Below are positions 406 to 30,679 of a DNA stretch of 64,000 nucleotides, one piece after another; within the stretch, counting starts at the first letter, position 1, and each line of letters begins with the position of its first letter. Position numbers and translations under genes: made by a program. Under the pieces are notes generated by a model. That model saw only the letters and a program-made list of their open reading frames with translations. It was not told the DNA's origin and ran no database searches. Location: assembly GCA_963422385.1 (NCBI GenBank), contig OY729432.1, positions 1,237,666-1,301,665 on the forward strand, read 5' to 3'. Source of the stretch: Candidatus Binatia bacterium (GTDB lineage Bacteria > Desulfobacterota > Binatia > UBA9968 > JAJDTQ01).

Positions 406-2733
406 TCAAGATCTGACCCCTTCGTTGCCTTGCCGGCGCTCCTGCAGGCGTTGCCATACCTTGGGCGGCGTCAGCGGCAGGTCGCGGATGCGGATGCCGA
501 CGGCATCGTCCACCGCCGCGGCAATCGCGGACGCGGCCGGCAGCACGCCGCCCTCGCCCATGCCCTTGGCCCCGAACGGCCCGGGGCCGTTTCCGCTTTC
601 CACCAGCTCCGAGATGAAATTCTCCGGCAAGTCGTGGAACGTCGGCACGCGGTAGTCCACGAGGTTGGGGTTCAGAAGCTGGCCTTCCTCGTACACCATC
701 TCTTCCAGCAGCGTGTGTCCCAGGCCGAACACCACGCCGCCCTCGTCCTGTCCCTCGGCCTGCAGCGGGTTGATGGCCCGTCCCACGTCGGCCATGGACA
801 CGTACTTGAGGATACGGATGACGCCGGTATCCGGGTCCACCTCCAACTCGACGCCGCCCCAGCCCACCTCCCAAAAGGTGGTGGGGGAACCCAGCACCGC
901 GGTCTTGCTCTTCTTGTCGCGGTAGACGCCCCGGCCGACGATCTCGGTGGCGGAGCTGCCGAAGTACTCGGCGATAACGTCGCCGTAAGGTACCCCGCGT
1001 CCCTTGGCGCCGCGCACCCGGCCGCCCTTGAGCGCGAGGTTGTCGGCCTTCTCGCCCATGACCTTGGCCGCCGCCCGCAGCAACTGCTTCTTCACGTCCT
1101 GGGCCGCCCGCTGGGTCGCGAGGCCCATGACCGTCATGGAACTGCTGGCGCTGGTGGACACGTCGAAGGGGGTGACGTCGGTATCCAACTGGGCCACGGA
1201 TACCTGCTCCAGCCTGATGCCCAGCTCCTCCGCCACCACCTGGCTCAAGGCCGTGCGGCATCCCTGGCCCACCTCCACACTGCCGGTGAGCAGCACGGCG
1301 CTGCCGTCCGAGGACATCTTCACGGTGGCGCCGGCCACCTTGTAGGTGCCCCCCGCGTCTTTCAGGCACACGCTCAGCCCCTTGCCCACGTTGGGCCGGG
1401 AAGCCTTCTTCCAGTCCAGCGCCCGGGCCACCTTGCGCAGCCCCTGCTTCAGGTCGCAGTCCACGGGGGTGTCGCCGGGGGTGTAGGGCTCGCCCTTCTC
1501 CAGCAGGTTCTTGAGCCGGAAGTCCAGCGGGTCCATGCCGAGCCGCTTGGCGATCATGTCCATCTGCGACTCGTAGGCCCACGCCACCTGGACCGCGCCG
1601 AAGCCCCGGAAGGCCCCGGCCGGCACCGTGTTGCTGTAGACGCCGTGGGCATCGATCTTGACGTTGGCGACGCGGTAGGGACCCACGGCCCGGTAACCGG
1701 CCTTCTGGGTGACCCGCGGTCCGGCGTCGGCGTAGGCGCCGGTGTCCATGTAGACTTCCAGCTCCCGCGCCACCAGCTTGCCCTTCTTGCTGACCCCGGT
1801 CTTGATGCGAATACGCGCGGGATGGCGCGTCACGGTCTTGAAGCTCTCGCTGACACTGAGAGCCAGCTTGACCGGCCGGCCGTTTCTCACCGAAAGCGCC
1901 GCGGCGATGGGGTCGGCCTTGACGTAGAGCTTGCCGCCGTAGCCGCCGCCGACGTAGGGCACCACCACGCGCACCCGGTTGAGTGGCAGCTTGAAGATCC
2001 CCGCCAAGTGCCCCCGCAGCGTGAAAGGGTCCTGGCACGAGCTCCACACCGTCAACCGGTCGCCGTCGAAGTGGGCGAGGCAGATGTGGGGCTCCAACGA
2101 GTAGTGCTGCACCCGATTGAAGCGAAAAACGTCCTCGAAGACGTGGTCGGAGCGCGCGAAGCCGCCATCGACGTTGCCGCGTGAATAACCGAAGTGATAG
2201 CACACGTTGGTGCCCTTGAACCGGTCCGGCGCGCCATATTTGGAGCCCCGCAACTCGGCCTTGGGGATGTCGCCCTCATGCACCATCGGAGCGCCGGGCG
2301 CCAAGGCATCGTCCACCGTGTCCACAAACGGAAGCTCCTCGTACTCGATCTCGATGTGCCCCAAGGCCTCCTCCGCCACCAACTCGTCCGCGGACAGCAC
2401 CGCTGCCACCGGGTCGCCGACGTAGCGGACCTTGTCCACCGCCACCACTGCCTGGTCCTTGTAGGTGGCGCCGTAGTTATAATTCAGGCCGGCCAACTCG
2501 TCCCGGGTGAGGACGTCAACGACCCCGGGCAAGGCCCTGGCCTTGCTCGCATCGACCTTGAGAATCCGCGCGTGGGGCAAGGGGCTCCTCAGAATCTTCG
2601 CATACGCCATCCCCGGAAGCTCGATGTCCCCGGTATAGAACGCCTTGCCCGAAACCTTCTCGATCGCGTCGACGCGCACCGCCGGGCGCCCGGCCACTGA
2701 TAGTCGCTGTTTTTTCATGGGTGTCTCCGACAC
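406..2733 (-). CDS. xanthine dehydrogenase/aldehyde oxidase family molybdopterin-binding subunit (CoxL/XdhA-like)
   Basis: 775-aa ORF with long aldehyde oxidase/XDH a/b-hammerhead and MoCo-binding domain-like sequence (GYGGK..., AFRGFG..., VEVGQG motifs); GGAGA 5 nt upstream of the ATG. Confidence 0.88.
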   Translation of the reverse strand: MSETPMKKQRLSVAGRPAVRVDAIEKVSGKAFYTGDIELPGMAYAKILRSPLPHARILKVDASKARALPGVVDVLTRDELAGLNYNYGATYKDQAVVAVDKVRYVGDPVAAVLSADELVAEEALGHIEIEYEELPFVDTVDDALAPGAPMVHEGDIPKAELRGSKYGAPDRFKGTNVCYHFGYSRGNVDGGFARSDHVFEDVFRFNRVQHYSLEPHICLAHFDGDRLTVWSSCQDPFTLRGHLAGIFKLPLNRVRVVVPYVGGGYGGKLYVKADPIAAALSVRNGRPVKLALSVSESFKTVTRHPARIRIKTGVSKKGKLVARELEVYMDTGAYADAGPRVTQKAGYRAVGPYRVANVKIDAHGVYSNTVPAGAFRGFGAVQVAWAYESQMDMIAKRLGMDPLDFRLKNLLEKGEPYTPGDTPVDCDLKQGLRKVARALDWKKASRPNVGKGLSVCLKDAGGTYKVAGATVKMSSDGSAVLLTGSVEVGQGCRTALSQVVAEELGIRLEQVSVAQLDTDVTPFDVSTSASSSMTVMGLATQRAAQDVKKQLLRAAAKVMGEKADNLALKGGRVRGAKGRGVPYGDVIAEYFGSSATEIVGRGVYRDKKSKTAVLGSPTTFWEVGWGGVELEVDPDTGVIRILKYVSMADVGRAINPLQAEGQDEGGVVFGLGHTLLEEMVYEEGQLLNPNLVDYRVPTFHDLPENFISELVESGNGPGPFGAKGMGEGGVLPAASAIAAAVDDAVGIRIRDLPLTPPKVWQRLQERRQGNEGVRS

Positions 2734-2799
2734 CCTTCTTAACCGAAGTTACGGGGTCAGGCAATGACGCCCCGGCGGGGAGCGGCCTAGCGCCCATCC

Positions 2800-4710
2800 T
2801 CACGGCGAGCTTCGCTCCGTCTCCTCCTTCAAGGTCTCCAGCTCGGTCCAGCGCTCCACGGCCCGGTCGAGGGTGGCCTTGGCGGCTTTGAGATCGTCCA
2901 GGACCGGCTGGACGCTGGCGAAGGGCCGCGCGTAGAAGTCGGGCTGGCGGGTCTTCTCCTCCAGCGCGGCCACGGCCTGCTCCATGGCCTCGATGCGGTC
3001 CGGCAGCCCGTCCAGTTCCAGTTGCAGCTTGTAGCTGAGCTTTGTGGGGCGGGACCTCGTCTCACGCCGGTCGCGAGCCGGTTCCCGGGCGGCCTTGCGC
3101 TTCGGGTCGTCGGTGACGTTCAGGGCCTTGCCACGCCTGGCCCAGTCGCTGTAGCCGCCGGCGTAGGGCTGAATCCGGCCCGAATCCTCGAACACCAGGG
3201 TGCTGGTGACGCAGTTGTCGAGAAAGCTGCGGTCGTGGCTCACCACCAGCAGCGTGCCCCGGTAGGCCACGAGCTGCTCTTCCAGCACTTCCAGGGTCTC
3301 GATGTCGAGGTCGTTGGTGGGCTCGTCCAGGATCAGCAGGTTCGCCGGCCGGGTGAGCAGCCGGGCCAGGATGACGCGGTTGCACTCGCCGCCGGACAGC
3401 GCGGCCACCGGGCTCATGGCCCGCTTGGCACTGAAGAGAAAGCCGCTGAGGTAGCCGACGACGTGGCGCGGTTTGCCGCTCACCATGACGTGGTCGCGGC
3501 CGTCCGCCACGGTCTCGGCCACGGTCTTGTCGGGGTCGAGCTCCCGCCGCAGTTGGTCGAAATAGCCGATCTCGAGGTTGGCGCCCGGCTCCACGGTCCC
3601 GGAGTTCGGGGTGATCTCGCCCACGAGTATACGCAACAGCGTGCTCTTGCCGACGCCGTTGTTGCCGATGAGCCCGAGGCGGTCGCCGCGCATGATGCGG
3701 AGCGACAGGTCCCGGATCAGCGGCTCGGCGCCGTAGCCGTGGGTGACGTTGCGGAGCTCCACCACCTTGCGGCCCGACTGCCCGCCGTGCTGGACGTGGA
3801 TGCGCGCCTGGCCCTGAGGCTTGAGGCGCCGCGCCGCCTCCTCCCGCATGGCCATGAGGGCGCGCACCCGGCCCTCGTTGCGCGTCCGGCGGGCCTTGAT
3901 GCCACGCCGGATCCATTCCTCCTCCTGGGCCAGCCGCTTGTCGAACAAGGCGTCGCGCCGGGCGTCCTCCGCCAAGGTCTGCTCCTTGAGCCTGAGGTAG
4001 TTGTCGTAGGTGCCGGGCCAGCTCGTGAGCCGGGTGCGGTCCAACTCCACGATGCGGGTGGCCAGCCGCCGCAGGAACGCACGGTCGTGGGTGATGAACA
4101 GGACGCTGCCCGCGTAGTTGTAGATCCGGTCCTCGAGCCACTGGATGGTGCTCAGGTCGAGATGGTTGGTGGGCTCGTCGAGCAGCAGCAACTCGGCGTT
4201 GCCGACGATGGCCCGGGCGAGCCCCACCCGGCGCTGCCAGCCGCCGGACAGTTCGTCCAGACGCCGGTCCGCCGGCAGGTCCAGCTCGCTCAGGACCGTA
4301 TCCACGCGCTGGTCCACGTGCCAGCCGCCGTGGGCGTCGATCTCCCGATGCAGCGCCTCCAGCTCCAGCAGGCCCTTGCGGTCCAGAGTCTCCATGGACC
4401 GGCGGCCGTAGAGGTCGATGAGGGCCTGGAGGTCCGCCAGCCCGGTGGCGACATATTCCCGTACCGTCTGCCGGAGCTCTTCGGGAAGCGCCTGCTCCAG
4501 CTCGCTGATCCGGATGCGGCTCTGGGTGTGGATCTCCCCGTCGTCGGGCTCGATCCGGCCGGTGATGAGACGGAGCAAAGATGTCTTGCCGGCACCGTTG
4601 CGGCCGATCAGACAAACCCGCTCCCCCGGCTCGATGGCGAGTTCGGCGTGCGCCAGCAGCCGCTGGTCGCCCAACCGGAGGGATACGTCTTCGAAGCTTA
4701 CGAGGGGCAT
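2800..4710 (-). CDS. uup: ABC-F family ATPase Uup (two ABC domains plus C-terminal coiled coil)
   Basis: 636 aa with two Walker A motifs (GRNGAGKTS, GNNGVGKST), LSGG signatures, an inter-domain KARRTRNEGRVRAL linker and C-terminal KLSYKLQ..L..LP coiled-coil. Collinear with E. coli Uup (635 aa). Confidence 0.85.
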   Translation of the reverse strand: MPLVSFEDVSLRLGDQRLLAHAELAIEPGERVCLIGRNGAGKTSLLRLITGRIEPDDGEIHTQSRIRISELEQALPEELRQTVREYVATGLADLQALIDLYGRRSMETLDRKGLLELEALHREIDAHGGWHVDQRVDTVLSELDLPADRRLDELSGGWQRRVGLARAIVGNAELLLLDEPTNHLDLSTIQWLEDRIYNYAGSVLFITHDRAFLRRLATRIVELDRTRLTSWPGTYDNYLRLKEQTLAEDARRDALFDKRLAQEEEWIRRGIKARRTRNEGRVRALMAMREEAARRLKPQGQARIHVQHGGQSGRKVVELRNVTHGYGAEPLIRDLSLRIMRGDRLGLIGNNGVGKSTLLRILVGEITPNSGTVEPGANLEIGYFDQLRRELDPDKTVAETVADGRDHVMVSGKPRHVVGYLSGFLFSAKRAMSPVAALSGGECNRVILARLLTRPANLLILDEPTNDLDIETLEVLEEQLVAYRGTLLVVSHDRSFLDNCVTSTLVFEDSGRIQPYAGGYSDWARRGKALNVTDDPKRKAAREPARDRRETRSRPTKLSYKLQLELDGLPDRIEAMEQAVAALEEKTRQPDFYARPFASVQPVLDDLKAAKATLDRAVERWTELETLKEETERSSP

Positions 4711-5192: not shown

Positions 5193-6074
5193 CTATTGCT
5201 GGCTTGCGATGAAGGCCCGCACCACCTCGTTGAACTCCGCCGGATGCTCGCGGTACGAGAAGTGGCCGGCCTGGTTGATGATGTGCATCTGGGTGCGGCG
5301 CTCGCTTCCCGCCAGGATCTCCATCAGGCGCATGCCCTGGTCGAGGGTCGCGGTGGGGTCGTTGTAGCCCCATACCAGCAGCGTGGGCCGTTGCAGGCCG
5401 CGGTCCCGGATCCAGCCCAGGGTCTCATCCTTCTGCCGCGCGTGCCGGGCCAGGAAGAGGTTGGTCTTGAGCCCCTGCATCTCCATCTTGTCCACGGCCT
5501 CCCGGTACTTCGGCAGTTGGGCGATGGCGGTGCAGGCGTCGAGCCAGTCGTCGGTGATGTGGTCGTGGCTGTAGGAATAGCGCTCCAGCACCCAGCGCTG
5601 GCTGTCCCGACCCAGCCGCGGCTTCGGCGCATTGGCGAACACGATATCGTTGCGCCCGACGCCGGGCGCCAGGGTGTTGGTATCCACCGGGATCACGGAC
5701 TTGACCAGATCGGCCCTTTCAAGGGTCATGCGCGCCACCAGGTAGGCGCCGCGGGAATGCCCCACGAGGTGGACGTTGCCGAGCTTCAGGGTCTCCAGAA
5801 AGGCCAGCGCGTGCCGCACCACCGCGGCCATGATGTAGTCCTCGTCGCGCTTGGGATTGTCGGTCATTCCCTGGCCGAGCTTGTCCACCGCGTAGACGTG
5901 GAACCACTGCGCCAGGCCGTCGAAGTTGAGCCCCCAGTCGAGGCTGCAGTCGGCAGCGTCGTTGGAGCCGAAATTGCCGCCGTGTAACAGCACCAGCGGC
6001 TCGCCGCTGCCCTTCTCGAAGTAGCGGGTCCGGATGCCATCCACGTCCACGAACCGTTCGTCCGCCTGGTTCAT
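5193..6074 (-). CDS. alpha/beta-fold hydrolase (meta-cleavage-product hydrolase-like)
   Basis: Start set at internal ATG 6074, preceded by GAGGAGG. It gives MNQADERFVDVDGIRTRYFEKGSGEPLVLLHGG...GHSRGAYL (GxSxG nucleophile elbow) and a C-terminal His region. The upstream in-frame extension of the 413-aa ORF is GC-junk. Confidence 0.82.
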   Translation of the reverse strand: MNQADERFVDVDGIRTRYFEKGSGEPLVLLHGGNFGSNDAADCSLDWGLNFDGLAQWFHVYAVDKLGQGMTDNPKRDEDYIMAAVVRHALAFLETLKLGNVHLVGHSRGAYLVARMTLERADLVKSVIPVDTNTLAPGVGRNDIVFANAPKPRLGRDSQRWVLERYSYSHDHITDDWLDACTAIAQLPKYREAVDKMEMQGLKTNLFLARHARQKDETLGWIRDRGLQRPTLLVWGYNDPTATLDQGMRLMEILAGSERRTQMHIINQAGHFSYREHPAEFNEVVRAFIASQQ

Positions 6075-6425
6075 GCGATTCCTCCTCGATGATCGGCCAA
6101 TCCCTGTCCGGGGAAGCCTGCCGCGGGGATCTCGTGAATCGAGTTGCTTCTGCGCCGCGGCCCCGTGGCTCTTTTCGTCGTTTGCCCCACACTGTAGCGG
6201 ATTGTCGGATGAAGGGTAAGAAAGGGGAGCGCTGAAATTCCCGTTTCCCGTGGTCGCCGCAGTCCGGGAAGACCACGCTCTTGAGAAGGCTCTTCGAGCC
6301 GCGGTTCCGCTACGTCTCCCTCGATCCGCCGGACCTTCGGGCCACCTTTGCCTCGGACCCATGCGTGCTTCTGGGGCAGTTCCCCCGGGTTGACACGTGA
6401 CGTCCGGACGTCGATACTGTGGTTC

Positions 6426-7615
6426 ATGGAACAAGGCAGATTACGAAATTTTCCTGGACAGGTACGAGACGCCATCTTGCAGGTGCTGGTGCTGACGTCC
6501 CAACCGCTGTCCGCCAAGGAGATCGAAAGCCGGGTGCGGAAAATCACTGGCCCAACGCCCGCATCCTCAATCAGGTCTTACCTGAGGCTCAATACGCCGG
6601 GGCTTTTCGTTCGCGAAGAGCGTGGCGTATACGCTTTGCGAACACGCCGAAGCCGCGGCACCGGCACTCAAAGAGAGCTCGGCTACCCACGGCAATGGCA
6701 AGCGCCGTTCCATTGTGGGAAAGCGACCATCGTGAACGCCGACTGCTTCGACTGGATAGAAAGCCGGGAAGCGAATAGTCTTCATGCCGTGGTGACCGAT
6801 CCGCCTTACGGTTTGCACGAGTATACACCCGAGCAGCAGCAAAAATTGCGCAAGGGTAAGGGCGGCGTCTGGCGCGTCCCGCCCTCCTTCGATGGGAACA
6901 GGCGTTCTCCGCTTCCCCGTTTCACTACTCTGACCCGGGATCAACTGGAGCAATTGGAGACGTTTTTCTTCGTCTGGGGCAAATCCCTGCTTCCCAAGCT
7001 CGTTCCCGGCGCACATGTCGTAGTAGCCTCCAATCCCCTCGTTTCCTACATCATTTCAAGGGCATTGGCCGATGCCGGCCTGGAGAGAAGGGGAGAGATA
7101 GCGCGCCTGACCATGACCATGCGGGGGGGGGAGATCGTCCGAAGGCGGCGCATGAAGAGTTCAGCGAAGTGAGCGTCATGCCGCGTTCGATGTGGGAGCC
7201 GTGGGTGGTATGCAGGAAGCCTTTCGACGGCCGCGTTCAGGACAACTTGAGGAAATGGCAAACGGGAGGCTTTCGCCGCCCCACACCGGACAAGCCCTTC
7301 GGCGATGTCATCGCATCGGGGCCGACGAGAAAGAGCGAAAGGGCCCTTGCCCCCCATCCGAGCCTGAAACCGCAGGCATTCATGAGACAACTCGTTCATG
7401 CCGTGTTGCCCTTGGGAGAGGGTGTGATTCTCGATCCGTTTGCAGGGGCGGGCTCTACGTTGGCAGCGGCGGAGGCGGTCGGTTACGAGAGCATCGGCGT
7501 AGAGAAGGATCCTGAATTTTTTTCCCTGGCGTGCTCGTCGATACCGAAGCTTGCCGGCCTGAAGATCAACGGCAACACTAGAGCATGTATATCCAGCTAT
7601 CCCGAAGTTTCATGA
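6426..7615 (+). pseudogene. HTH-fused beta-class DNA methyltransferase (DPPY motif before FxGxG), frameshifted in a G9 homopolymer
   Basis: Frame 0 (6426..7172) has an N-terminal winged-helix-like segment then ...VVTDPPYGLHEY... and stops just after the G run at 7123-7131. Frame 2 (7169..7615) continues ...HPSLKPQAFMRQLVHAVLPLGEGVILDPFAGAGSTLAAAEAVGYESIGVEKDPEFF. Adding one G (G10) fuses the two frames into one full-length methyltransferase. The locus is lower-GC than its flanks. Confidence 0.7.
7123..7131 (+). repeat. G9 homopolymeric tract inside the methyltransferase ORF (frameshift site)
   Basis: Nine consecutive G at 7123-7131. A G10 tract would give one full-length methyltransferase reading frame. 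Confidence 0.9.
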
Positions 7616-7994
7616 TGCCGTCTTTGTGTAGCGTGGCGGTGCGTGTTCCGAGCTCCCCTCTCGGGTTCTTCCTGAAATCATCCATTGTCACCTTGCCCGG
7701 ATAAATCTCCGTGAAAGTCATCGGCGTCCTGTCCACGGCCGGTTCGGAAACGGTATCTACCGCGTAGACGAAAACACACATCCACTGGTCTCTCGCTCCG
7801 TGGGTATCGACAGCGCCTCCGGCTTTTCTTGTGGTTTTTATTTCCACGCCTTCGGCTCCGGCCTTGCCAGCGTTGCCGGCATAAAGCCCTCTCACGATGA
7901 GATCAGGATGACCATTGAAATACCTGTTTTCCGTCAAAACGCGAGAATGATTGGCGAGGCTCGCCGTCAACATGTCGGAAAGCAGGCCCGACAT
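7578..7994 (-). CDS. PD-(D/E)XK restriction endonuclease-like protein (candidate Type II REase, possibly the C-terminal part of a split gene)
   Basis: 138 aa: ...NRYFNGHPDLIVRGLYAGNAGKAGAEGVEIKTTRK... gives a PD...(E)IK catalytic motif. Convergent with the methyltransferase and overlapping it by 38 bp; lower GC; weak SD for this ATG. Confidence 0.5.
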   Translation of the reverse strand: MSGLLSDMLTASLANHSRVLTENRYFNGHPDLIVRGLYAGNAGKAGAEGVEIKTTRKAGGAVDTHGARDQWMCVFVYAVDTVSEPAVDRTPMTFTEIYPGKVTMDDFRKNPRGELGTRTATLHKDGIMKLRDSWIYML

Positions 7995-8170
7995 GATCGC
8001 ATGTCATCAAGCCGCTGCAAACCCTTCTCGGCAAGATGCGAATTGACGTCGTAAAAGAAATCGTAGACGTCCTGCATCGCCATCTGGAAATCCTGCTGTC
8101 GCAGTCCATACGGAGGTTCTGCCTTCCGATTGAACCTGGAGCTTTCAACAGTATTGCGTATGGTTGACAT
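7967..8170 (-). CDS. small ORF (67 aa), possibly the N-terminal segment of the endonuclease gene separated by a frameshift near 7995-8003
   Basis: ATG at 8170 with GGGAG 6 nt upstream. Translation MSTIRNTVESSRFNRKAEPPYGLRQQDFQMAMQDVYDFFYDVNSHLAEKGLQRLDDM... has natural, non-GC-junk composition and ends 28 nt inside the 7578..7994 ORF in another frame. The rest of the 429-aa ORF in the track is antisense to the SDR gene and spurious. Confidence 0.35.
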   Translation of the reverse strand: MSTIRNTVESSRFNRKAEPPYGLRQQDFQMAMQDVYDFFYDVNSHLAEKGLQRLDDMRSCRACFPTC

Positions 8171-8308
8171 GGCAAACTCCCAACAGCGCGAATTCCTGGT
8201 AGTTTCCAGCAACCTCGACTCTTGATCCTTCATCTCACGCTTGGAAATCAACCGGCAATCGGATAAGGGAGAGTGAGCCGGAAGGGGCAAAATCCAAGGA
8301 GGCAGGCA

Positions 8309-9133
8309 ATGGCGAAACCGAACGGCGACGAGCATCCCATGCTGAGGGAGGGGTTGGGGCGGCTGAGAGGCAGAGTGGCCATCATCACCGGCGCCAACAG
8401 CGGCATCGGCCGGGCCACCGCCCGGCTGTTCGCGCGCGAGGGGGCCAACGTTCTGTGCTGCGACATCCAGGAGACCATGACGCCGCGGGTGGACGAGCTC
8501 ATCATCAAGGATGGCGGCGAAGCCACCTTCCTGAACGTGAACGTGACCGCGGCCGGCGGTCCCGAGGAGATGGTCCGGACCGCCATCGCACGGTACGGGG
8601 ACGTGGACATCCTCTACAACAACGCCGGCGGCGGGATACGCAAGCAGGCTCACGAGTTCACGGACGAAGAGTGGAACTTCATCATGGACCTCAACCTGAA
8701 CGCCATCCAGAGGAGTGTCCGTGCGGTCATCCCCCACTTCATCGAGAAGGGTAGCGGCAACATCGTCAGCACCGCGTCCACCTTTGGACTGCTGGCCTCG
8801 GGCAACTACCCGGCCTACTGCGCCACCAAGGCGGCGGTGATCAGCCTGACCCGGCAGATGGCGCTGGACTACGGTCCCAGGGGCATCCGCGTGAACTGCA
8901 TCTGTCCCGGCGCCACCGAGACCCCGCGCTTCCGCGGGCATCCGCCGGTACCTTCGCTGCAGGCCGCCACCCCCGAGCAGCGCAAGCGCATGGCCGACAG
9001 CAACAAGGCGCTGCTGCGAATGGCGCGGCCGGAGGAGATGGCCTACGGCGTCCTGTTTCTGGTGTCCGACGAGGCGTCCTTCGTCACCGGCCACGCCCTG
9101 GTGGTGGACGGCGGCCAGACCATCGCCGTGTAA
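8309..9133 (+). CDS. SDR-family NAD(P)-dependent oxidoreductase
   Basis: TGANSGIGRATA Rossmann motif, NNAG, YxxxK (YCATKAAV) active site; AAGGAGG 6 nt upstream of ATG 8309. Confidence 0.88.
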   Translation: MAKPNGDEHPMLREGLGRLRGRVAIITGANSGIGRATARLFAREGANVLCCDIQETMTPRVDELIIKDGGEATFLNVNVTAAGGPEEMVRTAIARYGDVDILYNNAGGGIRKQAHEFTDEEWNFIMDLNLNAIQRSVRAVIPHFIEKGSGNIVSTASTFGLLASGNYPAYCATKAAVISLTRQMALDYGPRGIRVNCICPGATETPRFRGHPPVPSLQAATPEQRKRMADSNKALLRMARPEEMAYGVLFLVSDEASFVTGHALVVDGGQTIAV

Positions 9134-11986: not shown

Positions 11987-12411
11987 TCATCCGCCCGACG
12001 CCGCAGGCCCCGTTGACATCTCTCCCCATCCCTTCCACCGTGAGCCAGATCCCTGAACGCACCCCGCCGGTGCGGCAGTCGGCACCGCGTTCCACCCCTG
12101 CACAACCCCTCTGCCACCATCCTCCGACGCACCATGTCCGCAGAGAACGAGAGCCGGGCCGTAAGAGCGCGGGCAGAGATTGGATATCCGGGAGAGCATC
12201 CCCGCTGTTCCCAACCGCCTGCACAAAGGAGACGGCACCATGACTACCAGTGTCACCTCGCAATCCTGGTAACGCAGAGGGGTCTCCCGGGCAATCTGAA
12301 GAAATTCGCACCACTGTATCTTGTCGGGCATTCAGAGCGCCGGAACCGTAGAGTTAATTCAGAATGGCGGGATCGTCGGAAGTATCGTAACGGCAGGAAC
12401 TACGGCTCACG

Positions 12412-13116
12412 TCAGCGGTCCGCGCTCTCCCATGTGCTGTGTAGGGTGTGCAAGAGTGCTTCGGCGTTCCGGGTGTCTTCTATCCAGCTCAACATGAACG
12501 CCCTGTTACCCGCATCCTTGATCGAACATCCGATATGCCAGCACCCTCTTTCATTCTCGTAGGCGAAATCGGACGGGAGATTCGCAGCCAGCAGTTCAAC
12601 CTTCAGCGGTCCCTGAACGCTGCCGAGAATGATGAAGATCGATCCGTCCATGTACGGATCGATGACGCGAACCGATTGCGTGTCGCGGCGAAAAATCGCC
12701 CTTATCTGCACGTAGGCATCGTGCTGTGTGCCTTGCGGGAAGAACAATTCGCGGACGGTTTCAGTTGCTGGCGCGAGAGTACCGCCGTCGATACGCCAGC
12801 AGATCCGCTGCAAACCGGCGTTGAGCTGTTCTACCAGACCCCCGAGGGCGAGTTCCTCGAAAACAATGAAAGCGACGCGTAGCTTGTCCTCCCCGTCCAG
12901 GGCTTCGTACGCTGCGTTGATCCGATGCCGGTACGCTGCCTTGCGGTACTTATGCGAGGAGTCTTCCCGCACCGTGAGCCTCCAATCGACCGTTACGCCG
13001 GACATGTCGATGATGCCGGGTATCTCATGGCTGTCGAGTTCGAAGAGGCATGCGACAATGACTCGCCAAGGGTCGCGTTCGCGCCTAGTCTTCCCATCGT
13101 CGTTAGGGAAAGACAT
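12412..13116 (-). CDS. hypothetical protein (island cargo, lower GC)
   Basis: 234-aa ORF with natural amino-acid composition in a lower-GC stretch; no recognisable motif by eye. Confidence 0.45.
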   Translation of the reverse strand: MSFPNDDGKTRRERDPWRVIVACLFELDSHEIPGIIDMSGVTVDWRLTVREDSSHKYRKAAYRHRINAAYEALDGEDKLRVAFIVFEELALGGLVEQLNAGLQRICWRIDGGTLAPATETVRELFFPQGTQHDAYVQIRAIFRRDTQSVRVIDPYMDGSIFIILGSVQGPLKVELLAANLPSDFAYENERGCWHIGCSIKDAGNRAFMLSWIEDTRNAEALLHTLHSTWESADR

Positions 13117-13177
13117 GCAGGGTTTCCAGGCTCCGTTTTCGTGGTCCGAACGGAAATGTCGGCAATGTGAGGTCAGG

Positions 13178-13998
13178 CTATGCGCCGTTTTCGACCAAGA
13201 GGTTGACCAACTTCGGATAGCGTCTCGCGATATCGGGATGACGGAGCAACCGGCTTTCCAGGTCGCGCTTTTCCCACCATTGGACCAGGAAATCTGTCAG
13301 TCTTCGCAGGTCTTCAAGATGATCGACGAGGGGAGCGGTGACGCGAGGATGCGCGATCAGCAGGAACCCCTTGGCATCGTGCCGCTCAAGGGTATCTCGT
13401 ATATCCTGCACATCGCCCTTCCCGACAGTGCGCCCGCGCGTTTGACCTAGGCCAGGATGCGTATGCGTTGCTTCTGGCGGTTGCCACGCGCAAAGTGGGG
13501 CCTCGGAATCGTCCAGTCGATCAGGATATCCCTGCTGCTGTCCCGGTCGTTGACACCGCCAACCGGCTTGGCGCGCGAAACGCCTGGTTCCCGGCGGAGA
13601 AGATCGACGAACAAATTCTCGAAGTTCCCCGCATCGAGCGAGGAATACCAGTCGGTGCGGGAATCGGCGAAGAAAACTTGATCCTCGGCCGTGCGCCGTT
13701 TCAAGAACCGCTTGCGCTCGGCATCGTAGACTTCCCGCCCACAATTCTCGCGGATGGCTATTAGCGTCTTATCGCCGAGAAAGATACAATGACTGTCGAT
13801 CGGAAGAAGCAGAGGCCTATCGCAGGGGCCGCCGGTCTTGTCCATGAGACGTTCGGCGAGCTTGATTGTCTTGAAAGGAACGACGTTAGTGATTCCATTC
13901 GCGAAGACCGCGAGCGCATGTTCGCCCGGTACGATGCTCCGGCGGTTCGTGCGTATTCGAACCGTACGGTAAGAATGGCGGGCTGTAGAGCATTTCAC
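13178..13998 (-). CDS. hypothetical protein, apparently frameshifted or split (two overlapping frames)
   Basis: Frame A 13447..13998 (...NFENLFVDLLRREPGVSRAKPVGGVNDRDSSRDILIDWTIP...) and frame B from about 13423 down to 13178 (GKGDVQDIRDTLERHDAKGFLLIAHPRVTAPLVDHLEDLRRLTDFLVQWW...) both look protein-like. They join only via a frameshift around 13424-13447. Lower GC. Confidence 0.38.
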
Positions 13999-14150
13999 TT
14001 TCGCCTGCGAGAATCGATCTGGTTACGTCCGCCAGTAGTATATCGGGCTCCGTTTCACGACCGATCCGGTGCCTGTCGTGCGTCACCGCCTTCCCCGGAA
14101 ACCGCTGTTGTGAATGCATGGAGTCCAATATACACCATAGCGTTGGAGAA

Positions 14151-14165
14151 ACACCAAAATGGTGT
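14151..14165. promoter_or_regulatory. perfect palindrome ACACCAAAATGGTGT (with extra ACACCA/TGGTGG half-sites nearby) upstream of the six-gene operon; candidate operator
   Basis: ACACCA at 14133-14138, ACACCAaaaTGGTGT at 14151-14165, TGGTGG at 14171-14176. A sigma70-like TTGCCA-18-CACAAT lies at 14197-14226. About 215 bp upstream of ATG 14380. Confidence 0.35.
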
Positions 14166-14379
14166 AAAATTGGTGGCCGTTTCAAGGAGTTAGGAATTGC
14201 CACAGCCAAAGTCGGAGAGGCACAATGTTGGCCTGTCCGAAGTCGACCTTCTGTGGCGTGATTGATCCGACGGACCATGTCGGAATTCGTGGCGTGGCAC
14301 CGCCACGGCCTCGCTCAGGATCTGCCGCTACGACGCCTCGAACCGGATTCGCGCGGCAGCAAGAAGGCGGGAGGATCGC

Positions 14380-16554
14380 ATGACGCATGATCCGGTGGTG
14401 CAGGACGATCCCGTTATCGCAACGGCGGAAGGAACGCTGCGGTTGCTGGACGGAGTTCGGCCACTCTACATGCTGCCTGCGGATCCGCTGGCGGAGGAAG
14501 TCCTGATCCCGGGCTTCCAGGCGGCGGGGAAGGTTGATTGCATCATGGTTGGGTTCTTCTCAAGCGAGGTGCTGGCCTCGCTTGCCCCCGGCCTCGCGAC
14601 CTACATCGCCGGTTCCGAGAACAGCTTCCGGCTTATCGTAAGCCCCCTGCTACAGACCGAAGACCAGGTGGCCATAGAGGACGGCCTGAAATCGGCGGAA
14701 GTAGTAGCGGACAGGATTCTCGAAGAACTGACCGTCACGGAGGACCTTCTTCAGCGCCATACGCTGAAGTGCCTGTCGTGGCTGCTCCGGGAGCGCAGAA
14801 TCGAAATCAAGGTCGCCCTGATGAAGGATGCTCTCTTTCATCCCAAGGTCTGGCTCTTCGAGAACAGGTCTGATGTCGTCGCGGCGCACGGGTCGAGCAA
14901 CGTAACCATTGCGGGCATTTGGAAGAACATCGAACAGATCGCCATATCCAGGTCGTGGCAGGACCCGAATCAGCGTTATATCACTGGCAAGCTTCGCTAC
15001 GAATTCGGCCGGTTGTGGGAGAACAAGGACGAGAACTGTATCGTCATCGCGATGCCGGAGGCGGTCAGACAGCGCCTGCTGCGGACGTACAGTTCAGAAT
15101 TCCCACCGACCGAAGACGAGCTGCGTGCTCTCTACGGTCGCGCGACAGGCGTATCGGAGGAGCCCGAACCCTACGAGGCCGTTTCAGTACCGGCGACGAG
15201 TTTCGCGATACCAGGCTGGCTGAGTTACAAAGACGGACCATTCGAACACCAGGGAAAAGCGGTCGATGCATGGGACGAGGCCCGGTATCGCGGTGTTCTG
15301 GAAATGGCGACCGGCTCGGGCAAGACGATCACCTCTATGATCGGCGCGTACCGTCTCTGCCAACGACACAAGCCTCTCCTGATCGTCGTCGCCGCGCCTT
15401 ATGTGCCGCTAATCGAACAGTGGTGCGATGAAATCGCGCCGTTCGGCTTGAAGCCGGTCAACCTCACCACGGCCGGGAGCGCCGCGAAACGCGCGAGCGA
15501 GTTGCAAAAACTGAAACGACGGCTGCGCACCGGCCTGTCGGATGTTGAAGCGGTTGTCGTCAGCCACGACACGCTGTGCACTCCGGAGTTCCTTGCCGCC
15601 ATCGAGGCGTTCGACTGCGCACGCCTACTGATCGCGGACGAGGTGCACAACCTCGGGCGGCCATCCTTTATCAACGATCCGCCCGAATTCTTCGAGTACC
15701 GTCTTGGCCTCTCGGCGACGCCGATACGCCAGTATGACGAAGACGGAACGGAAGCGTTGTTTGGGTTCTTCGGACCTGTGGCCTTCCGGTTCACGCTCGA
15801 AGAAGCCATCGGCCAGTGCCTTGTCGAATACGACTACTACGTCCATGCCGTGTACCTCACGAAAAGTGAGATGGACGAATGGTTCGACCTCACGGGAAAA
15901 ATCAAGCAGAACGCGTGGCGCAGTGAGGGCGGAAAGCCGGAAGAATATCTCGCCAAGTTGCTGCGGGACCGGCGCGCTTTGCTGGAGACGGCGTCGGGCA
16001 AGGTTGCCACCCTAGGTACTCTTCTGAAGGAAGAGAACACGGGCAACCTGCGGCACACGCTGGTCTACACGTCGGACAAGGGACCAGATCAGCTCGACAA
16101 CGTGAACCGGCTGCTGCGACACAGGAATATCCTGTTCCACCAGCTCACAGCCAAGGAGACAGCAAGCCGGCATCAGACGAAGCAGATCATCAAATCCTTT
16201 CAGGAGGGTGAAATCCAGATGCTGACCGCAAAGCGTGTGCTAGACGAAGGGGTGAACATCCCGCAGATATGCAAGGCGTTCATCCTCGCGAGCACGACGG
16301 TCGAACGGCAATGGGTGCAGCGGCGCGGGCGACTTCTGCGCAAATGCAGCGCCATTGGCAAGACTCACAGCGTCATCCACGACCTGCTAGCCCTACCACC
16401 GGGCATGGAGGAAGGGCTAGATACCGATGCGCGCGCTCTTGTGCGCTCAGAGCTGCACCGGGCACAGGAATTTGCGAGGCTTGCGAGAAATGCAGGCCGA
16501 CCGGACGGGCCGCTGGTGACAATCGATAGAATGGTTGACGCCGCGTTCCTGTAG
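14380..16554 (+). CDS. PLD-family nuclease / SF2 (DEAH-type, ResIII-like) helicase fusion protein
   Basis: 724 aa. N-terminal HxK...GSSN phospholipase-D-like motif (HPKVWLFENRSDVVAAHGSSNVT). Helicase motifs I (ATGSGKT), II (DEVHNL), III (LSATP), VI (QRRGRLLR). GGGAGGA 4 nt upstream of the ATG. First gene of the operon. Confidence 0.82.
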   Translation: MTHDPVVQDDPVIATAEGTLRLLDGVRPLYMLPADPLAEEVLIPGFQAAGKVDCIMVGFFSSEVLASLAPGLATYIAGSENSFRLIVSPLLQTEDQVAIEDGLKSAEVVADRILEELTVTEDLLQRHTLKCLSWLLRERRIEIKVALMKDALFHPKVWLFENRSDVVAAHGSSNVTIAGIWKNIEQIAISRSWQDPNQRYITGKLRYEFGRLWENKDENCIVIAMPEAVRQRLLRTYSSEFPPTEDELRALYGRATGVSEEPEPYEAVSVPATSFAIPGWLSYKDGPFEHQGKAVDAWDEARYRGVLEMATGSGKTITSMIGAYRLCQRHKPLLIVVAAPYVPLIEQWCDEIAPFGLKPVNLTTAGSAAKRASELQKLKRRLRTGLSDVEAVVVSHDTLCTPEFLAAIEAFDCARLLIADEVHNLGRPSFINDPPEFFEYRLGLSATPIRQYDEDGTEALFGFFGPVAFRFTLEEAIGQCLVEYDYYVHAVYLTKSEMDEWFDLTGKIKQNAWRSEGGKPEEYLAKLLRDRRALLETASGKVATLGTLLKEENTGNLRHTLVYTSDKGPDQLDNVNRLLRHRNILFHQLTAKETASRHQTKQIIKSFQEGEIQMLTAKRVLDEGVNIPQICKAFILASTTVERQWVQRRGRLLRKCSAIGKTHSVIHDLLALPPGMEEGLDTDARALVRSELHRAQEFARLARNAGRPDGPLVTIDRMVDAAFL

Positions 16555-16571
16555 CGGCTGGAGGAAGAGAT

Positions 16572-16817
16572 ATGGCACTAAACGACAAAAAGATAATCTC
16601 GATCATCCTTGAGCAGTACTCGGGAATCGAGAAACGGTGCGAAGGCTACCGGGAACAGATTATCCAAGTGATTTCCGAAATTCTGGAATACGAACGAAGC
16701 CACAGGGTCTCCGCGACGAATATCCAGAAGAAGATCAACGACAAGTGCAACGCCACGGCGCGGTTCCTTGCGACGCAGCGCGGCCAAGACACCGGCACGG
16801 AGGAACTGGACTCATGA
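16572..16817 (+). CDS. small hypothetical protein (81 aa)
   Basis: Natural composition (MALNDKKIISIILEQYSGIEKRCEGYREQIIQVISEILEYERSHRV...). Its stop overlaps the next start (ATGA at 16814-16817), indicating translational coupling. Confidence 0.5.
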   Translation: MALNDKKIISIILEQYSGIEKRCEGYREQIIQVISEILEYERSHRVSATNIQKKINDKCNATARFLATQRGQDTGTEELDS

Positions 16818-18949
16818 AACTTCTCCGCGCCGAATTTCAGAACTTCCGTCTGCTCCGCGACCTTGAGCTTGAATTCTCCAGCGATCCCGACAGGAAGCTG
16901 ACGGTCATCCGCGCGGCGAATGAGTCGGGCAAGACGACGATCCTTCACGGCCTGCAATGGGTGCTCTATGGAGACGGGGCGTTACCTGGTAAAGGCGAGG
17001 GCTTTCGGCTCCATCCTATCGACTGGGATGCCAGCGAAGGCCAGCGCGTCCCGATCACAGCCACGGTGAAGTTCGAGTTGACGAAGTATCGTCGCACTTC
17101 AGGTGAAATGCGCGAAATGCGCCGGCGCTATCGCCTCGTGCGCTCCGCATTCGAGGATGTCGACAGTCAGGTCCATCGTTCCGCCTCGACCGTGAAGCTG
17201 TTTGCGCTGAACGAGACTGGAGCAAGTCCTATCGACGCGCCGGAAGCTCTGGTCAACGAGGAACTGCCGCCGGAGCTGCGGGAAGTCTTTTTCACCGATG
17301 GCGACCGGGCTCTAAGCTTTATTGAGGCGGATATCGCCCTGTCCACAAAACGCGAGCGCGTGCAGCGGGCGATCCGTTCCCTTCTCGGCCTCGGCGTGAT
17401 CGACGACGCAATCAAGCATGTGCGCAAATCGGCGGCGGAAGTGAACAAGAAGGCGAAACAGGTCGGTGGCGGCAGCGAACTGAACGCAATCGCTACGCGC
17501 CTCGAAGAGATGGAAAACAACCGCGAGAAATTAGAGGCCGACCTTGATGACGCGAAACAGCAATTCGGCGCTTTCGACGAGAAGATTGACGAAATCGATC
17601 GCAAGATCGCAGCGGCCCTCCAGAAGGGTGACAAGGAGAAGCTGCGCAAGGACCTCGACCACGCACGGGCCGAAATCAGGCACTTCGACAGCCAACTGGC
17701 GGCAGCGAACAAAGAACACTCGGCACTGTTTCACAGTCGGTCTATTGCAACCGACCTGCTCGCACCTGTGCTCACGGGCGCATTTGACAAGCTGGAAGAG
17801 TTGCACGACCAAGGCAAGATTCCGAACACGACGATCCCAGTGCTGCATGACCGCCTTGAAGCAAAAGTGTGCATTTGTGGCGAAACGCTGGAACCTGGTA
17901 ACCCGGGTGGCGACAAGCGCCGCGCGCGTATCCGAAAGCTGATCGACGACAACCAGCGCGTCGATGAAATCCAGGAAATCATCACAGACCTGTACTACAG
18001 CGCAAAGCCGCTACAGGGCAGCGGCGGATCGAGCGGGTGGCTAGAGGAATACAAGAAAGTGGTCAAGGGTCGCGACGGCATCCAGGCACTACGCGACAAA
18101 GCGGGCCGGAAGTTCCGAGCGCTGGAAATGCAGCTCGACTCGCTTCCCGACACGGACATCCAGGGCCTGCGCGAAACGTGCCGCCAGTACAAGGACAATC
18201 GTGACCGCCACCTGTCGAAAAGGTCGGCCATCGAAACCCAGCTTATGGGGCTGAGGCGCGATCGCGAAGGGATGGAAGCGAAGCGCGACCGCCGGCTGCG
18301 CGAACAGAAAAAGGGCGCGCGTATTCTGGCCGAGCGGGACGTCACGCAGGACGTGATGAAGGTGCTGAAAAGCGCTTATGCGCAAATTACGAACGAGGAA
18401 TTGCAAAAAGTCAGCGATCTGATGAACAGCATATTCCTCGAAATGATCGGTGCGGACCCTGAACAGGGCGCAATCATCCGGCACGCTGAGATCAGCCCGG
18501 AATTCGATATCATTGTCTATGGTCCGCAGGACAGGACACTTAACCCCGACCGGGACCTGAACGGTGCGTCACGGCGGGCGCTGACGCTCGCATTCATTCT
18601 GGCGCTGACGAAGGTCAGCGAGGTCGAAGCGCCGAATGTGATCGATACGCCGCTCGGCATGACGAGCGGCTTTGTGAAACGGTCTATTCTGCGCACGGCC
18701 GTGCGGGAGAGTGCGCAACTGATCCTGTTCCTGACGCACGATGAAATCGCCGGCTGCGAGGAGATCATCGACGAGGCCGCGGGCGTCGTCTTCACGCTGA
18801 CGAACCCGGCGCACTATCCGAAAATGCTCATCAACGATCCGGGGGTCGTCGAGCGCAAGGTGGTCCGCTGCGCCTGCGACCACTTGAACGAATGTGAACT
18901 CTGCCAGCGCCGCTCGGATGCGGAGGTCGAGTTGGGTATAGCGTCATAG
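16814..18949 (+). CDS. SMC/Rad50/DndD-like ABC ATPase with coiled coil, central CxC zinc hook and C-terminal Cys cluster
   Basis: 711 aa from ATG 16814. N-terminal FQNFRLL...IRAANESGKTTILHGLQWVLYG Walker A. About 350 aa of coiled coil with KVCICGE in the middle. C-terminal ABC signature/D-loop region (LTLAFILAL...VIDTPLGM...LFLTHD) and CACDHLNECELC. Confidence 0.82.
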   Translation: MKLLRAEFQNFRLLRDLELEFSSDPDRKLTVIRAANESGKTTILHGLQWVLYGDGALPGKGEGFRLHPIDWDASEGQRVPITATVKFELTKYRRTSGEMREMRRRYRLVRSAFEDVDSQVHRSASTVKLFALNETGASPIDAPEALVNEELPPELREVFFTDGDRALSFIEADIALSTKRERVQRAIRSLLGLGVIDDAIKHVRKSAAEVNKKAKQVGGGSELNAIATRLEEMENNREKLEADLDDAKQQFGAFDEKIDEIDRKIAAALQKGDKEKLRKDLDHARAEIRHFDSQLAAANKEHSALFHSRSIATDLLAPVLTGAFDKLEELHDQGKIPNTTIPVLHDRLEAKVCICGETLEPGNPGGDKRRARIRKLIDDNQRVDEIQEIITDLYYSAKPLQGSGGSSGWLEEYKKVVKGRDGIQALRDKAGRKFRALEMQLDSLPDTDIQGLRETCRQYKDNRDRHLSKRSAIETQLMGLRRDREGMEAKRDRRLREQKKGARILAERDVTQDVMKVLKSAYAQITNEELQKVSDLMNSIFLEMIGADPEQGAIIRHAEISPEFDIIVYGPQDRTLNPDRDLNGASRRALTLAFILALTKVSEVEAPNVIDTPLGMTSGFVKRSILRTAVRESAQLILFLTHDEIAGCEEIIDEAAGVVFTLTNPAHYPKMLINDPGVVERKVVRCACDHLNECELCQRRSDAEVELGIAS

Positions 18950-18955
18950 GAGGCG

Positions 18956-19420
18956 ATGATGACGGATCGATATTTCAATCCGTTCCAGGCAATCGATATC
19001 AACGTGCCAGTCGAATTCCATGAGGCGTTCATACGGTACTGCCAGCGAAGCGCCAACGCGGTGATCGACCAGAGCCCGTTTCCGCGCATGGTCGATCTCT
19101 GGTTCCTGTCCGTATGCGTCGCGAGTCGGCTCGGGCTTGATCCCGCCGACATCGCGAAATTCGATACGCGCAAGATCATTGATGGGTCGATATTTGGCAG
19201 CGATCCATGGCGTGTTCACACGATCATGCTCATTGCGATTGGCACATTGGGCGATGTGCAGGTCGTCTCCGAACCCCGCAAAATGATGACGCTGGCTAAC
19301 GGCCTTGCCGTGGCCGGCCTTCCAAAAGTCATCGAAATGCTCAAGGACGGCGATGCGGAACCGATCTGGAACCTGTCGGACGCTGTTGACGCTCTCTTGC
19401 GCAAAGAGAGGACAGCGTAG
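18956..19420 (+). CDS. hypothetical protein (154 aa) coupled to the SMC-like ATPase
   Basis: ATG 7 bp after the ATPase stop, with GGAGG spanning that stop. Natural composition; no motif recognised. Confidence 0.55.
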   Translation: MMTDRYFNPFQAIDINVPVEFHEAFIRYCQRSANAVIDQSPFPRMVDLWFLSVCVASRLGLDPADIAKFDTRKIIDGSIFGSDPWRVHTIMLIAIGTLGDVQVVSEPRKMMTLANGLAVAGLPKVIEMLKDGDAEPIWNLSDAVDALLRKERTA

Positions 19421-19534
19421 GAGCCGGTGCATGTCGATATCGGTTTGTGGGAATGCCTGGCGAAAAGCCGAATTTGGTGGCAGCAGTTGGGCGGGCGTAA
19501 TTGGGAAGCCGCATAACAAACGGAGATAAACGGC

Positions 19535-23814: not shown

Positions 23815-23817
23815 GAC

Positions 23818-29005: not shown

Positions 29006-29159
29006 GCTCCCCTCGGTCACTGGATGATGCCTCCAGTTCGACTGTAGCCGACGAGTCATGCTATGGTCAACAGATACTTGGATGGTGCACCTAGAAGCAC
29101 ACGGTCGCCGGAACCCCGGCAATCAACAAGCCTTTGTGGTTCTAACTCATTGAAGCACA

Positions 29160-30347: not shown

Positions 30348-30679
30348 CTTGACTATTGAAATGCCTCGAACGGATGCAGCCCACCGGGCCGGCTCGGACG
30401 GCTGCCCAAGGCATGTTCGTTGCATGGCTAGGAAGGGCGGCACCGCATCCGTCCTGGATTGCCACGCCACGTGCCACAGCGTCTCGCCGATTTTCGGTGC
30501 CGAACCCGGATAGTGATGGGCCTGCATCAGGCGTCGATAACGCCCTTCCTCCCAGCCGCCACCGGCTCGACCACCACCTCGCGCAAATTCAAAGGAGTCC
30601 CCTCGCTCCATCCTGTAATCTCCGCCTTTCTACTCCTTTCCTCCCCGAAAGTTCATACCTGACCCTAACTCCGTGTCCT

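Follow-up and report, generated by a model that had tools for sequence, protein, structure and literature searches.

Positions 6426-8170 of a 64,000-nucleotide (nt) stretch of a Candidatus Binatia bacterium genome (contig OY729432.1, positions 1,237,666-1,301,665; hereafter the window) hold a DNA methyltransferase (MTase) gene whose reading frame is lost inside a run of nine guanines (G9) and, convergent with it, an endonuclease gene that is also broken in frame. Such a locus raises the question of whether the G run is a genetic on/off switch, a misread homopolymer, or one of the scars of a defence system that no longer works. Using homologous loci from other genomes as the reference, we conclude that an ordinary dead defence system, not a genetic on/off switch, is the most likely answer. 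We put the probability at roughly 0.7 that the locus is a recently dead, horizontally acquired, compact Type II restriction-modification (R-M) cassette with one frame-shifting lesion per gene. An earlier note on this DNA had described a decayed or phase-variable Type II system in which a frameshifted beta-class MTase faces a convergent, possibly split endonuclease of the PD-(D/E)XK type. The gene pair, the disruption of both frames and the decay are all supported. As in a Type II R-M system, the two genes are adjacent and recur together in other genomes; neither open reading frame (ORF) is intact in the window, which makes the locus a remnant.

Two frame-shifting lesions

The two genes, read here as putative pseudogenes, and their lesions are as follows (aa, amino acids; SAM, S-adenosylmethionine; wHTH, winged helix-turn-helix).

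6426-7172, plus strand: 5' part of the MTase pseudogene, with the wHTH, a variable linker and motif IV (DPPY), then out of frame to a premature stop
7123-7131, plus strand: G9 homopolymer, probably an ancestral CGG GGG GGA (G7) plus two G; the frame-breaking lesion of the MTase
7132-7615, plus strand: 3' part of the MTase pseudogene, with the target-recognition region, motif X and SAM-binding motif I (FAGAGS), in the -1 frame relative to the 5' part
7967-8170, minus strand: 5' fragment of the endonuclease pseudogene, 67 aa, ATG at 8170, stop at 7967-7969; holds the first N-terminal helix (model residues 25-48), ends just before the second (60-78), then out of frame
7992-8005, minus strand: site of a 10-nt deletion, located from homolog DNA in register and from the alignment to the relative L001
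7578-7994, minus strand: 3' fragment of the endonuclease pseudogene, 138 aa, ATG at 7994, stop at 7578-7580, in another frame; holds the PD...ExK core (GHPDL ... VEIKT)

The MTase ORF opens at the ATG at 6426, loses its frame in the G9 run, which is the only homopolymer of at least 8 bases in the 64 kb, and reaches a stop at 7170-7172; the remainder lies in another frame and ends with the stop at 7613-7615. Searched by tblastn, the MTase is matched in two pieces, 1-234 and 232-392, in two frames. One more G would give a single ORF of 396 aa and two fewer one of 395 aa, i.e. run lengths of G7 and G10 are in frame, and G8 and G9 are out of frame. In the restored protein, the Pfam family PF01555 (N6_N4_Mtase) covers residues 120-369, across the break (E = 1.6e-14; 54.9 bits against a cut-off of 26.7 bits), and the same family is matched by 10/10 aligned MTase homologs. 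The G9 run thus splits the PF01555 domain, and the interruption at a nine-G homopolymer, first noticed from the letters alone, is real in the sequence as assembled. The PADLOC profile MTase_II (Type II MTase) also matches (E = 7.5e-104), and the motifs come in the order typical of the beta class, with DPPY at residue 125 and FAGAGS at 338. Comparison with solved structures gave distant matches to CcrM, DpnA, MboIIA and RsrI, confined to the SAM-binding part. DPPY favours N6-methyladenine (m6A), and the enzyme is probably of the m6A type judging by its motifs. Its N-terminal ~75 residues give a weak HARE-HTH/winged-helix signal in Pfam (E = 0.021 for the window, 0.0034 for the best homolog), below the curated cut-off. 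Of the description as an HTH-fused beta-class enzyme, the class is borne out by the motif order, and the HTH is suggested by this weak signal. In DPPY-then-FxGxG order and PF01555 match, the protein is like the beta-class N6-adenine/N4-cytosine MTases CcrM, M.RsrI, M.MboIIA and DpnA, from which it differs by its extra N-terminal winged HTH.

The homologs indicate which run length is the natural one. Among the 120 MTase homologs listed, 118 carry T-M/L-R-G-G-D-R-P with exactly two glycines, the search pattern having failed to match the other two, and R-G-G-D is encoded at the G-run site in 81/81 species-level loci (L001-L081). The window reads ATG CGG GGG GGG AGA TCG at this site; minus two G, it becomes ATG CGG GGG GGA GAT CGT CCG, which encodes M-R-G-G-D-R-P. 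Locus L073 has exactly ATGCGGGGGGGAGATCGT here, i.e. the restored G7 sequence of the window, in frame, as do six metagenome loci, and the pairwise alignment to L001, the closest intact relative, shows a 2-nt GG insertion at 7123. Because the homologs encode R-G-G-D, the natural in-frame state is most simply G7, to which the window has added two G. The earlier proposal that one more G restores the ORF is arithmetically correct, but the homologs show two fewer G; a G10 allele, although in frame, would add a glycine to the R-G-G-D motif, which no matched homolog does.

The run itself is variable between lineages and always in frame outside the window. Across the 81 loci, its greatest length at the site is 2 (39 loci), 4 (29 loci), 5 (10 loci), 7 (two loci) or 9 (one locus), meaning that it is absent or interrupted (length 2-5) in 78/81. 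A metagenome scan for runs of at least G6 at the site returned the six loci mentioned above, all G7 and in frame, none of them closely related to the window. No length polymorphism was seen in the 81 loci plus these six. Exact look-ups of the window's MTase and endonuclease fragments and of the flanking hydrolase gave no match in the assemblies searched, so that no tract length from the same strain entered the comparison. From the alignments, the G run is no maintained feature but the chance result of how a few lineages encode Arg-Gly-Gly. The one G9 allele outside the window lies at 4676-4711 of L026, a metagenome-assembled genome (MAG) of Candidatus Eisenbacteria; this intact member reads its nine G in frame (AGG GGG GGG GAC) and has a full-length endonuclease alongside.

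The second lesion is a deletion in the endonuclease gene. Taken together, the 67-aa and 138-aa pieces can be aligned over the full length of intact 200-aa homologs, and the 3' end of the gene overlaps that of the MTase by 38 nt, as it does in the intact cassette L001. With the DNA of 40 homologs set out in register, the region of the lesion measured 63 nt in the homologs versus 53 nt in the window, which runs from GACATGC straight into GATCATG where homologs have, for example, GACATGC TTCGCCCTGC GATCATG. The deletion of 10 nt, placed at 7998 in the alignment to L001, takes out Leu-Arg-Pro-(Ala) and shifts the endonuclease frame; it occurs in none of the homologs that have the region, and it is irreversible. 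A second frameshift behind the 67-aa ORF, suspected in the earlier note, is thereby confirmed. In homologs with the Ala codon GCG (e.g. L020), a TGC microhomology flanks the segment that is deleted in the window.

Beyond these two lesions, the cassette is well preserved. The global alignment to L001 (84% nt identity) contains three indels only, namely the GG insertion, the 10-nt deletion and an in-frame 6-nt indel in the variable linker. As a measure of recency, we took the alignment columns at which at least 97% of the 120 homologs agree. The restored endonuclease departs from them at 1 of 101 columns (Leu to Pro; median of intact homologs, 0) and the restored MTase at 1 of 163 (Val to Ile; median of intact homologs, 1). 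Counted in this way, damage at conserved columns is no more than in typical intact homologs, and the lack of decay beyond the two lesions suggests that the inactivation is recent.

Gene states in the family, rival readings and a proposed course of decay

To place the two lesions, the states of both genes in the family have to be considered. Protein searches gave at least 8000 candidates for each protein, the matches listed being 70-86% identical, and a genome scan found the cassette family in at least 545 species-level genomes, with matches in Nitrospirota, Gammaproteobacteria, Chloroflexota, Planctomycetota, Verrucomicrobiota, Acidobacteriota, Desulfobacterota and other phyla. The convergent endonuclease-MTase pairing is present in 57/81 species-level loci and is kept in the divergent members L092 and L093; L001 has the same convergent pair, with its 38-nt 3' overlap, in a wholly different gene context. 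The pair is also found, intact and again with the 38-nt overlap, on small plasmids of Klebsiella, Citrobacter and Raoultella. Those of Klebsiella pneumoniae (for example at 4938 bp) and of Citrobacter are mobilizable, of the Col440I type and 4.9 kb in size, and the Raoultella record has 2.2 kb. The plasmid annotation calls the endonuclease "hypothetical protein" (WP_047715645.1) and its partner "DNA methyltransferase".

L088 (NZ_CP040037.1), 2602-4322, and L089 (NZ_CP104462.1): plasmid-borne pair, about 66% identity to the endonuclease homolog P0014

The MTase is one uninterrupted tblastn match in 79/81 loci. The endonuclease is full or nearly full in 57 loci and frameshifted in two; another 10 keep a remnant of it, and about 10 have lost it altogether. 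Contig ends cut two further loci. A broken MTase beside an intact endonuclease was seen in 0/81 loci, and a frame-disrupted MTase alongside endonuclease loss, the state of the window, in at most 1/81 other loci (L018). Loss of the MTase with an active endonuclease is lethal. Since endonuclease loss with the MTase kept is frequent in the family, the reverse is unseen, and an unprotected endonuclease is toxic, the endonuclease probably died first in the window. The earlier note had the endonuclease decaying after MTase loss; with the endonuclease damaged or absent in about 22/81 loci and the MTase so rarely interrupted, that order should probably be reversed.

A course of events can be proposed on this basis. 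A cassette consisting of a presumably autoregulated promoter, a wHTH-fused beta-class MTase and a convergent 200-aa endonuclease was inserted between a hydrolase gene and a short-chain dehydrogenase/reductase (SDR) gene. The first event thereafter would have been the 10-nt deletion in the endonuclease gene, perhaps microhomology-mediated. The MTase, now dispensable for self-protection, would then have been frameshifted by expansion of a chance homopolymer from G7 to G9, presumably by replication slippage. As a consequence, neither gene would yield a full-length enzyme; with the promoter, the GACGTC-N2-GACGTC element and the wHTH N-terminal fragment intact, a truncated, catalytically dead protein is probably still made. 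The outcome is reminiscent of orthodox Type II R-M systems with a decayed endonuclease and an orphan or dying MTase, a general phenomenon (review, PMC12707154; halobacterial survey, PMC6471742). It is like them in its adjacent genes of foreign composition, its irreversible endonuclease lesion and the frequent loss of the endonuclease with the MTase kept in the family, but differs in that the MTase of the window is frame-disrupted too.

Several points weigh against a dead cassette. The near-absence of other degenerative changes is equally expected if the MTase is really intact; the G9 run is physically prone to slippage and could revert; the MTase lesion could be a +2 homopolymer miscall in the assembly; and broken MTases are under-sampled in the family survey, which started from MTase peptide patterns and ranked its matches by score. 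Two of these points feed the reading that the MTase lesion is an assembly or sequencing artefact, in which the true run is G7, the MTase is intact, and the locus is an orphan wHTH-MTase left after a real endonuclease loss. The coincidence of the lesion with the sole homopolymer of at least 8 bases in the window speaks for this, as do the absence of excess damaging changes from the remainder of the MTase and the fact that an intact MTase with its endonuclease lost is a common family state, seen in about a quarter of the 81 loci. We nevertheless regard an artefact as unlikely. It would need a +2 error where the usual error is +/-1, and no other gene of the window was seen broken at a homopolymer in rough checks: a 1299-codon stop-free stretch is present, and 17 other runs of 6-7 bases lie mostly inside uninterrupted stop-free stretches. 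The 10-nt deletion, which is not at a homopolymer, in the partner gene further shows that the cassette is truly decaying.

Slipped-strand phase variation, whose classic signature the earlier note saw here with a homopolymer sequencing error as the alternative, would have the G run switch an orphan MTase ON (G7/G10) and OFF (G8/G9) in the manner of a phasevarion. Nine G fall within the length range of known phase-variable homopolymers, and neither the promoter and operator nor any conserved residue of the MTase is damaged. Phase-variable Type III and Type I systems have been surveyed (PMC5909438, PMC7383803). As in phasevarion MTases, and as expected of a contingency locus, a homopolymer inside the ORF of an m6A-type MTase sets the frame. 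The relatives, however, do not keep the tract at varying length: it is short in 78/81 loci, and the eight G7 alleles and one G9 allele known elsewhere are all in frame, with no polymorphism. G10 would also insert a residue into a motif shared by 118/120 homologs; the irreversibly dead endonuclease leaves no R-M system to switch; and the window, from an uncultured high-GC host of the environment, contains no second long homopolymer. The locus differs from the phasevarions in its unconserved tract, in the lack of observed length variation, in the motif change that G10 would bring and in its dead partner, and we hold phase variation to be quite improbable. It would take somewhat more again to see in the step from G7 to G9 a newly arisen contingency locus, with an orphan wHTH-m6A MTase switching by slippage and a phasevarion outside host-associated pathogens, an idea we consider a long shot. 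Finally, that the split genes still function, either because transcriptional or translational slippage on G9, where polymerase slippage is conceivable, restores some full-length MTase or because the 138-aa endonuclease fragment, with its own ATG and its PD...ExK core kept, is active, deserves almost no credence, as that fragment is without the first 60 residues, including the long helices 25-48 and 60-78 of the model, and many family-invariant residues, such an architecture occurs in none of 120 close and ~25 distant full-length homologs, and endonuclease activity with no functional MTase beside it would be toxic. A recently dead cassette is thus the reading we retain.

Predicted endonuclease fold and promoter element

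Members of the endonuclease family as little as 29-30% identical still share N-G-H-P-D-L ... G-x-E-x-K in a diverse 40-sequence alignment, in which P92 is invariant, D93 follows P92 in most sequences, and at least 90% of sequences keep E113 and K115. The catalytic residues of the window copy are HPDL ... VEIKT. No match to the family was found in Pfam (40 members included in the search), NCBIfam, PADLOC or PHROGs, nor was a match to the endonuclease found in phage genomes; the PDB search by sequence and profile was also negative, with 0 profile matches at E<=10. A first AlphaFold2 (AF2) model, built from the 120 close homologs, was poor, with a predicted local distance difference test (pLDDT) score of 69, a catalytic region below 50 and non-significant Foldseek matches, and was replaced. 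The AF2 model from the 40-sequence diverse alignment reached a pLDDT of 92.9, and its top 31 PDB matches in Foldseek were all Type II endonucleases (NaeI, EcoRV, BglI, SfiI, NlaIV), with a best E of 1.4e-3, probabilities up to 1.00, TM-scores of only 0.31-0.45 and no sequence-level match. On the strength of this model, the 200-aa endonuclease is predicted to have an EcoRV/NaeI-like PD-(D/E)XK fold. It is like the EcoRV/NaeI/BglI/SfiI/NlaIV branch in its PD...ExK signature, small size (200 aa) and pairing with an MTase, and differs from it in the lack of detectable sequence similarity; the predicted-fold matches point to this branch with the low TM-scores just given. Among the representatives of the endonuclease clusters at 50% identity (P0241-P0390), a large share are 70-170-aa fragments covering different parts of the protein, as would be expected if the gene is often truncated or frameshifted in metagenomes, or if contigs are short.

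The MTase gene is preceded by a promoter with a repeated hexamer in its spacer.

6390-6418, plus strand: MTase promoter, TTGACA, 17-nt spacer, GATACT (promoter scan, 10/12 positions)
6399-6404 and 6407-6412, plus strand: GACGTC hexamers in the promoter spacer

The ATG of the MTase lies 7 nt past the -10 element, so that its mRNA is probably leaderless or nearly so. The layout TTGAC(A/T), 3-4 nt, GACGTC, 2 nt, GACGTC, TAnnnT, ~7 nt, ATG recurs in nearly all 81 loci, in many phyla, and the exact GACGTC-N2-3-GACGTC pair stands upstream of the MTase in 74/81 loci as well as in the window; the central dinucleotide varies and both hexamers are conserved. Two divergent members are informative. In L093, a free-standing 79-aa wHTH gene lies just upstream of a 298-aa MTase and the hexamer pair precedes the wHTH gene, and in L092 the MTase has no wHTH and the pair is absent. 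This pattern is most simply read as autoregulation of the MTase, with the wHTH as a controller binding to the GACGTC pair.

GACGTC is also the site of AatII and ZraI. The promoter hexamer thus gives a lead to M.AatII, which may be the nearest relative of the MTase among characterised enzymes. This m6A enzyme methylates the adenine of GACGTC (G-m6A-CGTC; PMC3287169). The pair in the promoter could instead, or also, be the system's own target, in which case expression would be methylation-sensitive, a feature new for the family. In the host flanks, the observed-to-expected ratio of GACGTC is 0.77 with the endonuclease intact and 0.94 with it lost, ranking 31 of 64 palindromes, which is too weak a signal to indicate specificity. 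That the pair tracks the wHTH would fit an operator at least as well as an own target. GACGTC sites inside the genes were also considered as a signal and rejected, being explained by Asp-Val and Leu-Thr-Ser codons and not conserved. A literature search for a characterised member (Col440I plasmids, WP_047715645, GACGTC methylomes) found no direct link.

Upstream of the endonuclease ATG, no conservation at all was found across L001-L081, which suggests that the conserved mobile unit ends at that codon; transcription of the endonuclease must then depend on the surroundings of the insertion site. Known autoregulated R-M systems carry an HTH on the MTase (SsoII/Ecl18kI/EcoRII) or use a separate C protein with a leaderless transcript (PvuII/AhdI/Esp1396I). 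The present family is like the SsoII and PvuII types in its palindromic element between -35 and -10, the association of that element with the wHTH, fused or separate, and its near-leaderless ATG, and differs from them in having no conserved region upstream of the endonuclease. In the SsoII type, moreover, the HTH sits on a C5 MTase, whereas here a HARE-like winged helix sits on a PF01555 MTase and the genes are convergent.

Insertion site, neighbouring genes and significance

The GC content of 6427-8170 is 0.571, against 0.669 in the upstream and 0.626 in the downstream flank, in agreement with the lower GC noticed from the letters alone. The cassette is horizontally acquired and the locus compositionally foreign. 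It lies in the divergent intergenic region between a hydrolase and an SDR gene.

5193-6074, minus strand: alpha/beta hydrolase gene, left flank of the insert
about 6220-8237, no strand assigned: inserted segment (~2.0 kb) made up of the R-M cassette and an ATPase remnant, from empty sites in relatives and lower GC
6236-6400, plus strand: remnant of an AAA_14-type ATPase N-terminus with Walker A SGKTTLL, ~54 codons, no start codon; from sequence reading and a weak Pfam AAA_14 match
8309-9133, plus strand: SDR gene, right flank of the insert

In two relatives, L090 (on a 4.77-Mb contig; hydrolase 85% identical) and L091 (hydrolase 89% identical), hydrolase and SDR are divergently adjacent with spacers of 149 bp and 284 bp, which identifies the ~2.0 kb of the window as an insertion. 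Homology to these spacers ends at ~6219 and picks up again at ~8238, and in the empty sites (L090 7852-8000, L091 1422-1705) the conserved motifs CACTGTAGCSGATTGTC...AAGGTTAA and CGCTTGGAAATCA...GGATAAGGGAGAGTGAGCC bracket the insertion of the window. The hydrolase has its nearest relatives (85-89% identity) in MAGs, and more distant matches are labelled Deltaproteobacteria or Candidatus Binatia. Direct or inverted repeats on either side of the insert would be a signature of transposition or integration, but a search for them gave only short chance matches. The ATPase remnant inside the insert (Pfam AAA_14, E = 0.0084, below cut-off) has no counterpart beside the cassette in the 81 other loci and may be a carry-over from the previous genomic context of the cassette.

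Two further observations concern the surroundings. About 4 kb from the dead R-M cassette, a defence island of the DNA-phosphorothioation type spans 12400-30400 (PADLOC E-values as low as 0), in which GC at third codon positions is ~0.64-0.73 versus 0.8-0.9 in most other genes of the window.

14266-16551, plus strand: PbeA-like helicase
16613-18946, plus strand: PbeC/DndD-like ATPase
19517-21904, plus strand: MORC-like HATPase protein
21721-23811, plus strand: 697-codon stop-free stretch
24657-28061, minus strand: SspC
28052-29122, minus strand: SspB (DUF4007)
29154-30344, plus strand: SspA/DndA-like

Outside 6200-8240, the window contains 0 copies of CAGCTG, the PvuII site, versus 17.7 expected under a Markov model, the strongest avoidance among 64 six-base palindromes, a hint that the host has, or once had, a restriction system specific for CAGCTG.

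For the window itself, the outcome is a correction of annotation, with two pseudogenes in place of four ORFs. It also carries a warning, as the observation that one base restores the frame can mislead on the ancestral state when no homologs are consulted. Mildly novel is the family behind it, a very widespread endonuclease family that current profile libraries do not recognise, together with a conserved promoter element. The endonuclease bears the label "hypothetical protein" everywhere, and because Pfam, NCBIfam and PADLOC miss it, library-based defence finders probably score such loci as orphan methyltransferases. With a model of high confidence, a PD...ExK motif and the GACGTC-N2-GACGTC element in hand, the family should be easy to characterise.

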